In this document: positions 19,351 through 22,512 of the stretch, piece after piece
How the letters are laid out: every line of letters starts with the position of its first letter
Position numbering within the stretch: the first letter of the stretch is position 1
Source: a virus
Direction: 5' to 3' (one strand)
DNA length: 41,749 nucleotides
Virus genome (UHGV): UHGV-1286557
Made by a program: the position numbers and the translations under genes
The notes under the pieces: generated by a model
What the model saw: only the letters and a program-made list of their open reading frames with translations
Told to the model about the DNA's origin: nothing
The model's database searches: none

Positions 19351-19556
19351 CATCTAAGCCTCATTACCGTCTGCGCCGGTTAATAGACTGCCAGGATGGG
19401 ACTCGTTTTTACACAAAGACATCATTCCGGCCGTACACTTTGATCACGTCCAGTGTTAAAAAATACGCCATTTGGACACATCTCGGGCATGACTTCAACC
19501 TGCACGGCACCAGAAATAAATGGGGCGGTTATGCTATGGGTTGGGTTGCCGTATGA
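19347..19556 (+). CDS. hypothetical small protein
   Basis: 69 aa, coupled; stop overlaps the helicase start. Confidence 0.4.
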   Translation: MTSKPHYRLRRLIDCQDGTRFYTKTSFRPYTLITSSVKKYAIWTHLGHDFNLHGTRNKWGGYAMGWVAV

Positions 19557-20974
19557 CCAGATTCAAACGCCGGCCCTATCAAAAGGCAATGACGCGGCAT
19601 ATGCTGCGCCATCCGCGCTGTAATGTCTGGGCCACAATGGGCTCGGGGAAGACGGGCTCCGTGATGTGGACCCTGGACCGACTGTTTCAGACCGGTGATC
19701 TCGTCGACGGCGAAGACCGCGTGCTCATCCTGGCGCCGCTGCGCGTCGCGTCCGGCACCTGGCCGGCCGAACAGGAGAAATGGCAATTCCCTAACCTGCG
19801 TGTCGGTGACGCAACGGGCCCGGCCGCGCACCGCGTCGCCACGCTGGAAGAAGATTTCAACGTCATATGCCTGAACTACGAGTGCATAGAATGGCTGACC
19901 GGGCTCTATGGCCCGGACGACTGGCCGTTTACCGTTATCGTCGCCGATGAGTCAACCAAGCTGAAATCGTACCGGTCAAAGAGCGGCGGCAGCAAACGTG
20001 CGAAGGCTCTAAGCCGGGTAGCATGGGGCCGCGTTAAGCGCTTCATCAATCTTACCGGTACGCCGTCACCTAACGGGTTAAAGGATCTGTGGGGGCAAAA
20101 CTGGTTCGTTGATGCCGGCGAGCGCCTCGGGACGTCCTACGCGGCGTTTACCGATCGCTGGTTCATTACCGAGTCAAAAGGCGACCACCACGCAGCGAAG
20201 GGCTACCGGCCGCGTCGGGGCGCCGATGATGAGATCCACCGGGCAATGAAAGATATTTCGTTGACAGTTGACGCTGCCGAGTTCTTCGGCTGTGAAGAGC
20301 CGGTGCTTGTCCCGGTGCTGGTAGACCTGCCGAAGAAAGCCCGCAAGATTTATGACCAGATGGAAAAGGAGCTTTTCGCGGAACTGGAGAACGGCGAGGT
20401 AGAAGCAGCCAATGCGGCGGCCCGCACGTCTAAATGCCTGCAGATCGCCAGCGGCGCGGTATACGTCACCAATGATGACGGCGAGCGGTCGACCGAGTGG
20501 GAGAAAATCCACGACGCTAAACTGGACGCGCTGGATTCCATTATCGACGAGCTGGCGGGCGCCCCGCTTCTGGTGGCCTACCAGTACCGGCACGACCTGG
20601 CGCGCATCAAAAAGCGGTTCCCGTTCGCCGAGGACCTGAAAAAAGGCGCTGCCGGTAATAAGCAGATCGACCGCTGGAACGCCGGAAAAATCGACGTATT
20701 GCTGGTCCACCCGGCATCGGCCGGTCATGGGCTTAACCTGCAGGATGGCGGATGTCACCTGGCGTTCTTTAGCGACACCTGGAACTATGAGCATTATGCG
20801 CAGGTCGTCGAGCGTATAGGGCCAGTGCGCCAGCACCAGGCCGGACACCCGCGGCCAGTGTTTATCTATCTCATCCAGGCAAAGGGCACGCTTGACGAGG
20901 TGATGGTCGCTCGTCGCGGCGACAAGGCATCGGTGCAATCGGTGCTTATGGACTACATGAAGCGGAAAAAATAA
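19553..20974 (+). CDS. SNF2-family DEAD/DEAH-box helicase
   Basis: Start at ATG 19553 (ATGA overlap). RPYQKAM...ATMGSGKTGS (motif I), DESTKLKS (II), LTGTPSPNGLKDLW, HPASAGHGLNLQDG (VI). Confidence 0.8.
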   Translation: MTRFKRRPYQKAMTRHMLRHPRCNVWATMGSGKTGSVMWTLDRLFQTGDLVDGEDRVLILAPLRVASGTWPAEQEKWQFPNLRVGDATGPAAHRVATLEEDFNVICLNYECIEWLTGLYGPDDWPFTVIVADESTKLKSYRSKSGGSKRAKALSRVAWGRVKRFINLTGTPSPNGLKDLWGQNWFVDAGERLGTSYAAFTDRWFITESKGDHHAAKGYRPRRGADDEIHRAMKDISLTVDAAEFFGCEEPVLVPVLVDLPKKARKIYDQMEKELFAELENGEVEAANAAARTSKCLQIASGAVYVTNDDGERSTEWEKIHDAKLDALDSIIDELAGAPLLVAYQYRHDLARIKKRFPFAEDLKKGAAGNKQIDRWNAGKIDVLLVHPASAGHGLNLQDGGCHLAFFSDTWNYEHYAQVVERIGPVRQHQAGHPRPVFIYLIQAKGTLDEVMVARRGDKASVQSVLMDYMKRKK

Positions 20975-22018
20975 ATGAACTATTACAACGAGTGGGATCC
21001 GCAGGCCGCCGCATGGCTTCGCGAACTTATCGAAAATAAACTTATTCCGGAAGGCGTCGTAGATGAAAGATCAATTACCGAAGTACAAGCCAAAGACCTC
21101 AAAGGCTTTACACAATGCCACTTCTTCGCAGGAGTTGGAGGCTGGCCTCTTGCGTTACAGATCGCAGGAATTCCCGCGACTCAACGCCTGTGGACGGGCA
21201 GTCCGCCGTGCCAGCCTTTTAGCGTGGCTGGAGCAGGAAAAGGGAAAGACGACCCACGTCACCTGGCTCCTACCTTTCTCAATCTCATCGCGGACTGCCG
21301 ACCTGCACTCATGTTTGGGGAACAAGTTGCGGCAGCAGTTACCAAAGATTTCTGGATCGATTCTTTACTCTTTGAACTGGAGGAAGAAGGCTACTCCAGC
21401 GGGTTTAGCGTACTTCCAGCTTGTGGCGTCGGCGCACCGCACAAACGCGATCGACTTTTCTTCGGCGCGTGCCGGATGGCCAACGGTGACGACGATAGAC
21501 AACAATCAGGTAGCTGGAGAAGGCGCGGCAGCGAACCATCCGGCAAGGGGAACGACATTAGGCGGGGCAGTGCGCTTAACAAACTGGCCGACACATACAG
21601 CGAACAACGGAACCGGGGCAGGGACGAGCGGTCGAGAAGGAGGATTGAATCTGCAAACGGCAGCGGCGATCGTAGCGTGGCCCACACCGACAGCGAACGA
21701 TTTCAAAGGGAGCGGAGAGACAGTGATTCGCAAGGACGGGAAGGACCGGACTTTCGACAGACTGGACTACTCGACGGAGCAGGGGCTGAAAATAACACAG
21801 CCAATCCGGGTCATGGCTTCTGGTCAGATGCTGACTGGCTCGGATGCAGGGATGGAAAATTCAGGCCAGTTGAATCCGGCACATTCCCGCTGGCTAATGG
21901 GATTCCCGCCCGAGTGGGACGCCTGCGCGGTTATGGCAATGCAATCGTCCCGCAAGTCGCCGCCGAATTCATCAAAGCATTCATGGCGGCCAAAGCAGAA
22001 ACCGAAACTAAGGCTTAA
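20975..22018 (+). CDS. DNA (cytosine-5)-methyltransferase; conserved motifs split across two reading frames (two compensating frameshifts: pseudogene or sequencing error)
   Basis: The 20975 frame carries motifs I FAGVGGW, IV PPCQPFS, VI FGEQV and VIII HKRDRLFF, then turns low-complexity (R/S/D/G-rich) from about 21473. The +1 frame (listed as 21063..22031) carries WPTxTA repeats and motif IX RWLMGFPPEW (about 21888). Motif X GYGNAIVPQVAAEFIKAF is back in the first frame (about 21932). Confidence 0.55.
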   Translation: MNYYNEWDPQAAAWLRELIENKLIPEGVVDERSITEVQAKDLKGFTQCHFFAGVGGWPLALQIAGIPATQRLWTGSPPCQPFSVAGAGKGKDDPRHLAPTFLNLIADCRPALMFGEQVAAAVTKDFWIDSLLFELEEEGYSSGFSVLPACGVGAPHKRDRLFFGACRMANGDDDRQQSGSWRRRGSEPSGKGNDIRRGSALNKLADTYSEQRNRGRDERSRRRIESANGSGDRSVAHTDSERFQRERRDSDSQGREGPDFRQTGLLDGAGAENNTANPGHGFWSDADWLGCRDGKFRPVESGTFPLANGIPARVGRLRGYGNAIVPQVAAEFIKAFMAAKAETETKA

Positions 22019-22020
22019 AC

Positions 22021-22512
22021 ATGGCGGATAAATCAAACACGGCGCCGGAGGATAAAGACTGCTGGCGCTCACCTCCGGAGATATTCGATCCGCTCAATGA
22101 GCGGTTTAATTTCCGCTACGATATGGCGGCAGCAGATCACAATGCCCTTTGCGCACGGTACTACACCGAACAGAATAGCGCCCTGGGTATCGAGTGGCCC
22201 GCAGCATGGAAATGGTGTAACCCGCCTTACTCGAAGCCGCTGCCGTGGTTCCAGCACGCCGCGCAGTACCGGAAAACGGTGTTACTCCTGCACCTGGCCG
22301 TCGCTACGCAGTGGATGGACATTGCGCGCAGGGAGGCGAAAACCATCATTCAGCTGACCGAGCGCATCCAGTTTATTCACGCCAGGACCGGCGAGCGCGC
22401 GGAGACGAAGAACAATCGCGACTCGCAGATCATCATCTTTGGACGTCGGCCTAATCCCGACGGCGCGCGCATCGTCCAGTGCTCGATCGCGGATATCGCA
22501 AAATATCTATAA
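22021..22512 (+). CDS. phage-type DNA N6-adenine methyltransferase (Dam, pfam05869-like)
   Basis: 163 aa. W.SP..IF..L...F.F..D.AA pattern; catalytic NPPY (CNPPYS); size and organisation typical of phage Dam. Confidence 0.75.
   Translation: MADKSNTAPEDKDCWRSPPEIFDPLNERFNFRYDMAAADHNALCARYYTEQNSALGIEWPAAWKWCNPPYSKPLPWFQHAAQYRKTVLLLHLAVATQWMDIARREAKTIIQLTERIQFIHARTGERAETKNNRDSQIIIFGRRPNPDGARIVQCSIADIAKYL

Follow-up and report, generated by a model that had tools for sequence, protein, structure and literature searches.

The virus genome UHGV-1286557, a stretch of 41,749 nucleotides referred to here as the window, carries on one strand two long overlapping open reading frames (ORFs), alpha and beta, which probably encode together a heterodimeric DNA (cytosine-5) methyltransferase of the M.EcoHK31I type. 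Alpha contains most of the sequence motifs of this enzyme class, and beta, which lies in the +1 frame and within alpha apart from 13 nucleotides, contains an array of modules headed by the residues WPT, followed by a motif IX pattern. An initial annotation of this region, made from the sequence alone, had reported a cytosine-5 methyltransferase with its motifs divided between the frame that opens at 20975 and the +1 frame; the motifs are divided in this way, and every feature lies where it had been placed. The same annotation had offered an inactivated pseudogene, two indel sequencing errors, or genuine recoding as explanations, with nested genes for two subunits not among them, and these are weighed below against the reading preferred here.

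A nested, two-frame layout of a cytosine-5 methyltransferase is already known from M.EcoHK31I; the published description extends neither to the proposed location of recognition cassettes in beta nor to how large the family is. Literature searches, including searches for ‘Mte8’ and for overlapping-frame phage cytosine methyltransferases, found no description of this family as a nested pair. Both ORFs are conserved, selection favors one frame, the other, or both in successive segments of the overlap, and selection keeps both frames open. From these observations we infer that beta is translated, that it forms a heterodimer with alpha and contributes the recognition domain, and that the enzyme is multispecific and acts against host restriction.

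Conservation of the two overlapping frames

Alpha and beta are jointly open over 953 nucleotides, in agreement with the ~950 initially estimated, and beta is fully nested inside alpha in most relatives. The longest open run in the +1 frame over alpha is 318 codons, which exceeds every value obtained in 20,000 synonymous resamplings of alpha (mean 117, maximum 305 codons); when alpha's own codons were permuted, the observed length was reached in 0.02% of trials.

The same arrangement is found in other phages. The closest annotated ones, Escherichia phages K1ind1-3, K1G and K1H and other members of the Kagunavirus group, share ~78% nucleotide identity with the window, and in K1ind3 two overlapping coding sequences are annotated (‘putative C-specific methylase’ and ‘putative Mte8-like protein’), with the beta ATG at the same offset from the alpha ATG (+88 nucleotides) as in the window. 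The same two frames are open in Erwinia phage Gungnir39 and in Klebsiella phage RAH2. Among IMG/VR sequences, ~60 of the 65 loci with a recognizable alpha keep the +1 frame open, down to ~43% amino acid identity, and the open stretch runs from about alpha codon 20-35 to a point between -83 and +61 nucleotides of the alpha stop, or into the next gene. The layout is also seen in distant methyltransferases (~30% identity) that have the standard motif order, where ...LNPxWVEWLMGFPxGWTDL in the +1 frame lies over ...EPxVGRVAxGxxxRVDRLRxLGNAVVPQ in frame 0.

Bacterial chromosomes contain the pair as well. A survey that used one genome per species matched 473 stretches, 80 of which were examined; the nested pair is intact in 70 of these 80 species genomes, and at the bacterial loci the overlap has a median length of 948 nucleotides and the third frame a median stop count of 13. 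At the protein level, 4699 beta homologues were present among the candidates scored, and clustering of beta-frame proteins at 50% identity gives 10,713 clusters with a threshold of E<=1e-3 (6,317 with E<=1e-10).

Selection by frame along the overlap

The frame under selection changes along the overlap, as seen when the window gene was aligned to 46 non-identical relatives and the differences were scored by codon phase. Between 20975 and 21275 the wobble positions of alpha are the most variable (0.51-0.60) and alpha amino acid identity is 0.69-0.86; beta identity (0.35-0.47) equals that of the control frame, and residues 1-70 of beta form an unconserved leader. Variability is then divided between alpha phases 1 and 3 (~0.3 each) from 21275 to 21455, where beta identity rises above that of the control frame. 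Over 21515-21694 it is the beta wobble position (alpha phase 1) that varies most, at 0.53-0.56 compared with 0.14-0.30 at the alpha wobble, and alpha identity there is 0.28-0.38, at or below control, before it climbs to 0.63-0.73 by 21814. Beta identity over 21515-21815 is 0.51-0.86 and in most bins exceeds that of both other frames, and over 21678-21869 it is 0.72-0.86 versus 0.38-0.73 for alpha. All three phases are conserved over 21815-21874 (variability of 0.13/0.03/0.14, with identities of 0.92 for alpha and 0.84 for beta), and from 21935 onward the alpha wobble again varies (0.45) at an alpha identity of 0.91 and a beta identity (0.52) equal to that of the control frame. The substitution phases therefore uphold the alpha-beta-alpha order of meaningful sequence that had been read from the motifs, and add to it two dual-coded stretches (Table 1).

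The central part of alpha had been described as a low-complexity stretch rich in R, S, D and G. This description is accurate for residues 166-280, which are 72% R/S/D/G/E/N/Q and 10% hydrophobic; the sequence of this linker is a by-product of beta, yet it is free of stops. The depletion of stops was measured by permuting synonymous codons in 44 non-redundant loci, with the third frame as a control. In the alpha center no alpha-frame stop is found where 139 are expected, compared with 231 observed and 233 expected in the third frame. In the 5′ part of beta, scored over a fixed interval that opens at motif I and closes 25 codons past motif IV, there is again no beta-frame stop against 22.9 expected (86 versus 87 in the third frame). 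Both frames are thus under selection as coding sequence, and because each stays open where the protein that it encodes is unconserved, two full-length products are favored over a double frameshift.

The alpha protein

Alpha contains motif I (FxGxG), the Pro-Cys of motif IV and the Glu-X-Val of motif VI. The Pfam family PF00145 (DNA_methylase) matches it with 66.7 bits (cut-off 22) over residues 66-172 only, corresponding to profile positions 58-167, i.e. to motifs IV-VIII; an hhalign comparison of residues 35-165 with residues 2-170 of M.HhaI gives a probability of 97.9%, and alpha matches PHROG 363 (‘DNA methyltransferase’) over its full length. The motif X assignment follows the textbook pattern GN(A/S)V, with no significant score behind it. 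Motifs IX, X and I-VIII do not occur in one polypeptide, as the motif IX pattern RWLMGFPPEW is present only in the +1 frame. As judged from sequence evolution, alpha would lack a folded small (recognition) domain. An identical alpha protein (P0259) is present in public data on 3 independent contigs.

The N-terminus of alpha (20975-21145, residues 1-57) contains YYNEWDPQAAAWL...PEGVVDERSITEV, which resembles motifs II-III of M.HhaI (SNEWDKYAQEVY...PEGDITQV) and precedes motif I, at residues 50-57. The hhalign alignment of alpha with M.HhaI has a 35-residue gap precisely where the latter carries motifs II-III, and a motif order of II-III-I-IV suggests a local permutation of the region that binds S-adenosylmethionine. 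The standard order is found in more distant relatives (L067, L072 and L075).

The predicted beta protein and its WPT modules

Beta matches PHROG 1008 (‘DNA methyltransferase’) over residues 4-297; Pfam and NCBIfam gave no match to beta, and neither did sequence and profile searches of the PDB. In the beta frame, WPT heads occur at 21477, 21585 and 21678. The initial annotation had called these tandem repeats, and the heads are present as described, but the units are not repeated at the DNA level. They are diverged modules that share 28-32% amino acid identity with one another, and tandem duplication of DNA as their origin was rejected.

When 285 beta proteins were cut at their WPT heads and the pieces were clustered at >=50% identity, more than 20 recurrent module types were obtained, in 146 arrangements of 1-7 modules per protein. 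The order in the window is C-B-A, and type A is nearly always the last of the array. Because alpha has no conserved sequence in its variable region, the function of target recognition lies most plausibly in beta. It could well be, though we propose this tentatively and with somewhat less than even confidence, that the alternative frame encodes the whole recognition half of the enzyme (1-7 swappable WPT cassettes together with motif IX), and that the variable region of alpha is no more than a stop-free spacer.

AlphaFold2 predicts in beta a helix (residues 76-95) followed by a hairpin (residues 102-124), with a predicted local distance difference test score (pLDDT) of 85-93, and predicts residues 1-70 to be disordered. 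The confident helix-hairpin region (residues 76-125) belongs to the first dual-coded stretch, where the other frame encodes alpha motifs VI-VIII, and in this model it may be an alpha-binding element.

Signals for initiation and frameshifting

In the window, a TAG in the beta frame lies directly upstream of the region in which beta starts, and the beta ATG is preceded by a sequence like a Shine-Dalgarno site (Table 1). The beta ATG of relatives lies +61, +76, +88 or +106 nucleotides from the alpha ATG and in many of them follows AGGAG or GGAG, the latter being the sequence in the K1 phages. A subgroup with the +106 offset (L023-L026, L029, L033, L041-L043 and L054) has AGGAG ~20 nucleotides upstream, built from the Arg-Ser codons AGG AGT of a conserved ‘D.RSI’ in alpha, so that the needs of one frame fix a synonymous codon choice (AGG for Arg) in the other. 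A search of the beta frame for X_XXY_YYZ heptamers at 21800-21940 found none in the window and one in 3 of 61 loci; homopolymer runs of >=6 are absent from the gene, and the alpha frame is free of stops at the junction.

Proposed two-subunit enzyme

In the proposed enzyme, alpha would be translated in a single frame from start to stop and would supply the large catalytic domain that binds S-adenosylmethionine, with motifs I, IV, VI and VIII, then the linker and motif X. Beta would be initiated independently within alpha, in the +1 frame, from its own ATG and Shine-Dalgarno-like site, and would consist of an unconstrained leader of ~70 residues, the helix-hairpin (residues 76-125), which possibly contacts alpha, WPT modules C-B-A, and motif IX. 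The two chains would assemble, with beta giving the small DNA-recognition domain that is absent from alpha, and the enzyme would protect phage DNA from host restriction by methylating it, probably at two or more target sequences. The neighboring Dam protein would add a second protective layer. Orphan methyltransferases of phages protect phage DNA from host restriction, and by analogy this is likely to be the role of the pair.

Several points weigh against this proposal. The product of beta is a predicted one, and its translation and binding to alpha are inferred from sequence; its first ~70 residues are unconstrained, and its true start could lie further downstream. The assignment of motif IX in beta relies on a pattern and on the one match that hhalign gave for the beta profile in M.HhaI (residues 268-287 of beta with 272-291 of M.HhaI), which is weak and not significant (E=0.19), and Pfam gave no match to a C-terminal motif in alpha, in beta, or in an alpha/beta/alpha hybrid. 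Structure prediction gave an unusable AlphaFold2 model of alpha (mean pLDDT of 41.9 with 87 close homologues), the beta model is of low confidence outside residues 76-125, and a Foldseek search of this model against the PDB returned only noise (best E-value 0.4). In M.EcoHK31I the recognition domain has been placed in alpha (PMC2836561; PMC3404938), whereas the conserved variable-region sequence of the window is in beta, and the likeness drawn here between the two systems is one of architecture, taken from the published description. To these points is added the existence of rare proteins in which alpha and beta are fused in frame (see below).

Alternative explanations

The canonical motifs in two frames and the disordered center of the single-frame translation are what an inactivated pseudogene, or a gene read with two compensating indel errors, would be expected to present. 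The nested pair nevertheless recurs across viral contigs, bacterial genomes and annotated phages, and for this reason sequencing error and decay are excluded: the same frame relationship is seen, at 30-90% identity, in hundreds of independent genomes from phages, metagenomes and isolates, among them K1ind3, Gungnir39, RAH2, the ~60 viral contigs and the 70 bacterial genomes described above; neither frame is disrupted, and purifying selection acts on each; and the exact alpha protein of the window is found on 3 independent contigs. We regard this explanation as refuted. Scarcely more probable is a beta that is a non-coding ‘shadow’, held open by the composition of alpha. High-GC or biased genes can carry long open alternative frames, and the first 70 and last ~35 residues of beta do behave as shadows of alpha, but in the center it is alpha that is the shadow (beta identity of 0.68-0.86 versus 0.28-0.38 for alpha, with the beta wobble the most variable position), the +1 open run is longer than in all of the resamplings, and the recombining modules are conserved as protein.

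A single polypeptide made by a +1 frameshift near 21470 and a -1 frameshift near 21920, with the order I-VIII, recognition domain, IX and X, has more to recommend it: the selected segments follow the order that such a product would use, the alpha/beta/alpha hybrid has the canonical motif order, and rare natural proteins do fuse the alpha N-terminus to beta in frame. We nonetheless consider it improbable, as both frames stay open beyond the points of the supposed shifts, with no stops where 139 (alpha center) and 23 (beta 5′ part) are expected and the control frame showing the expected number. The start of beta, a conserved ATG with a Shine-Dalgarno-like site, lies 400 nucleotides upstream of the first supposed shift, slippery heptamers at the beta-to-alpha junction are absent from the window and rare among the loci, and there are no long homopolymers. 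The alpha segment 21815-21934, which a fused product would skip, is strongly conserved as protein (identity of 0.92) and ranks with the best conserved regions of alpha, the in-frame fusions are singletons that lack motif X, and M.EcoHK31I functions as two separately expressed chains. Somewhat more probable, though still unlikely, is an alpha that is a self-sufficient methyltransferase overprinted by an independent beta gene, e.g. one for a regulator or an unrelated DNA-binding protein. The absence of Pfam, NCBIfam or PDB matches to beta fits this explanation, as does the annotation of alpha alone as a ‘DNA cytosine methyltransferase’, e.g. by the Prokaryotic Genome Annotation Pipeline (PGAP) in E. 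coli. Against it, the variable region of alpha contains neither conserved protein sequence (0.28-0.38) nor a recognizable recognition domain, beta ends in the motif IX pattern that is its sole match to M.HhaI, the pair co-occurs in essentially every locus examined, and alpha of M.EcoHK31I is inactive without beta.

Relation to known methyltransferases

M.EcoHK31I (Lee, Kam and Shaw, 1995), an enzyme of E. coli HK31, is a heterodimeric cytosine-5 methyltransferase in which beta is encoded entirely inside alpha, in another frame of the same strand, with motifs I-VIII and X on alpha and motif IX on beta (PMC2836561; PMC3404938). In this enzyme, silencing the beta start codons abolishes activity, supplying alpha and beta from separate plasmids restores it, and the N-terminal ~40 residues of beta are dispensable (PMC2836561; PMC3404938). 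The window has a nested beta in another frame as well, and the dispensable N-terminus parallels its unconstrained leader. The two systems differ in that M.EcoHK31I is a member of a restriction-modification system that recognizes YGGCCR, whereas the window pair is an orphan within a phage replication module, flanked by the helicase and Dam genes, and in that beta of the window is almost the size of alpha (322 versus 347 residues). M.AquI, from Agmenellum quadruplicatum (Karreman and de Waard, 1990), has motifs I-VIII on alpha and IX-X on beta, as consecutive chains (PMC3404938). It is, like the window pair, a natural two-subunit cytosine-5 methyltransferase split in the variable region; unlike the consecutive chains of M.AquI, the window pair keeps motif X on alpha and has beta nested almost entirely.

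Direct homologues of the window pair are ORF30/ORF29 of Escherichia phages K1ind1-3, K1G and K1H, named ‘C-specific methylase’ and ‘Mte8-like protein’, which are the same nested ORFs and are both called ‘DNA methyltransferase’ in RefSeq. The beta modules of K1ind3 are G-A, compared with C-B-A in the window, and the gene order is DNA polymerase - methyltransferase - helicase in the K1 phages as opposed to helicase - methyltransferase - Dam in the window.

The enzymes of Bacillus phages SPR, phi3T and H2 are orphans that contain several short tandem target-recognizing domains, varying in number and order. They are multispecific cytosine-5 methyltransferases, reportedly the subject of work by Wilke et al. 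in 1988, Guenthert and Reiners in 1987, and Lange et al. in 1991, all three of which appear in the reference list of PMC8936443. The WPT arrays of the window family, with their 1-7 modules and 146 arrangements, resemble these tandem domains, a likeness drawn by description only; the Bacillus phage enzymes are single polypeptides in one frame, whereas the window uses two.

Annotation and wider significance

Gene callers forbid long overlaps on the same strand, so only one ORF is reported and the pair is systematically half-annotated. RefSeq/PGAP annotates alpha alone at homologous loci across 57 E. coli genomes, an example being the ‘DNA cytosine methyltransferase’ at L162 1120-2022 in a P2-like prophage of the E. 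coli E21 chromosome, and thousands of metagenomic calls keep beta alone, as a ‘hypothetical protein’. Recognizing the pair averts false labels such as ‘frameshifted pseudogene’ or ‘disordered methyltransferase’ and supplies a function for a very large family of orphan proteins, which at >=10,713 clusters (50% identity) spans phages and prophages of many Proteobacteria. The ~950 nucleotides of dual coding, deeply conserved and with selection that differs from segment to segment, are also useful for studies on the evolution of overlapping genes.

If the alternative frame does encode the whole recognition half, few same-strand dual-coding regions known from prokaryotic viruses would be as long or as widespread as this one, and it would encode a multispecific anti-restriction methyltransferase of two subunits, its specificity evolving through the shuffling of cassettes while both frames constrain the sequence. 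Should the recognition cassettes lie in beta, the family could provide naturally split and modular cytosine-5 methyltransferases as a toolbox and could serve to predict the host restriction systems that a phage evades. In that case M.EcoHK31I, too, would call for another assignment of its recognition domain, which has been placed in alpha. M.EcoHK31I has already been applied to engineer targeted methylation (PMC2836561).

Fusions and exceptional loci

In several relatives (L008, L015, L018, L066, P0012, P0021 and P0133) the beta frame runs into the downstream Dam gene; the predicted beta-Dam (PF05869) fusions have 450-540 residues (L008 1571-3052; L015, L018 and L066 1568-2926). The in-frame alpha-beta fusions mentioned above are rare (P0138, P0379, P0380, P0383, P0388, P0404, which is from Klebsiella michiganensis (NCBI), and P0382), and all are singletons without motif X. 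Further singletons (P0113 and P0106) also join the alpha N-terminus to beta and likewise lack motif X, and the junction points differ among fusions. Assembly or indel errors could account for all these proteins, as could decay of the copies; alternatively, they could be single-chain variants that function.

L035, L048 and L049 depart from the common layout. The beta frame is interrupted in L035 (1571-2179), where 203 codons are open and motif IX was not found, and L048 and L049 (~1589-2266) have a short beta that lacks WPT modules and whose motif IX is divergent (WLMAFPLEW and IMGFPPEW). These may be decayed copies or minimal variants.

Locus organization

The coordinates of the pair, its motifs and its neighbors are collected in Table 1.

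Table 1. Features of the alpha/beta locus in the window, with the segments of the overlap classed by the frame under selection
Feature	Position	Strand	Remarks
Alpha gene	20975-22018	+	347 residues; proposed catalytic subunit
Beta gene	21063-22031	+	322 residues, +1 frame; proposed DNA-recognition subunit (WPT modules and motif IX)
SNF2-type helicase	19520-20974		directly upstream of alpha
Dam-family N6-adenine methyltransferase	22021-22512		downstream of alpha
Alpha NEWD			residues 5-8
Alpha motif I, FFAGVGGW	21122-21145	+	residues 50-57; aligns with M.HhaI counterpart
Alpha motif IV, SPPCQPFS	21200-21223	+	residues 76-83; aligns with M.HhaI counterpart
Alpha motif VI, FGEQV	21314-21328	+	residues 114-118; aligns with M.HhaI counterpart
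Alpha motif VIII, GAPHKRDRLFF	21431-21463	+	
Alpha linker	21470-21814	+	residues 166-280 (115 residues)
Alpha motif X, GNAIVPQVAAEFI	21935-21973	+	includes GNAIVPQV
Beta Shine-Dalgarno-like GGAAGG	21049-21054	+	8-nucleotide spacer, then ATG 21063-21065
Beta module C, WPTVTTIDNNQVAGEGAAANHPARGTTLGGAVRLTN	21477-21584	+	candidate target-recognition cassette; type in 31 proteins, varying array positions
Beta module B, WPTHTANNGTGAGTSGREGGLNLQTAAAIVA	21585-21677	+	candidate target-recognition cassette; type in 36 proteins, varying positions
Beta module A, WPTPTANDFKGSGETVIRKDGKDRTFDRLDY..., and conserved run-up to motif IX	21678-21869	+	type in 223 of 285 beta proteins
Beta motif IX, LNPAHSRWLMGFPPEW	21870-21917	+	RWLMGFPPEW pattern
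Alpha-only selection	20975-21275	+	motifs II/III-like, I and IV
Dual-coded	21275-21455	+	alpha motifs VI-VIII over beta residues 71-131 (LGNKLRQQL...GSILYSLNWRKKATPAG...ASAHRT)
Beta-dominant selection	21515-21815	+	alpha at or below control up to 21694
Dual-coded, second stretch	21815-21934	+	alpha GFWSDADWLGCRDGKFRPVESGTFPLANGIPARVGRLRGY over beta ...SGQLNPAHSRWLMGFPPEWDACA; both strongly selected
Alpha-only selection	21935 to end	+	beta tail AMQSSRKSPPNSS an unselected shadow of motif X

The genes of this block are tightly packed. The stop codon of the helicase abuts the alpha ATG (TAAATG, 20972-20977), and 16 nucleotides (22016-22031) hold the alpha stop (22016-22018), the Dam ATG (22021) and the beta stop (22029-22031), an organization which suggests that translation is coupled across the block of helicase, methyltransferase and Dam genes. 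Dam occupies the third frame in the window, and beta ends 11 nucleotides inside it. Antisense ORFs of 44-98 residues, including one at 21391-21687 on the minus strand, lie over the dual-coded center and are probably a by-product of stop depletion in the two forward frames.

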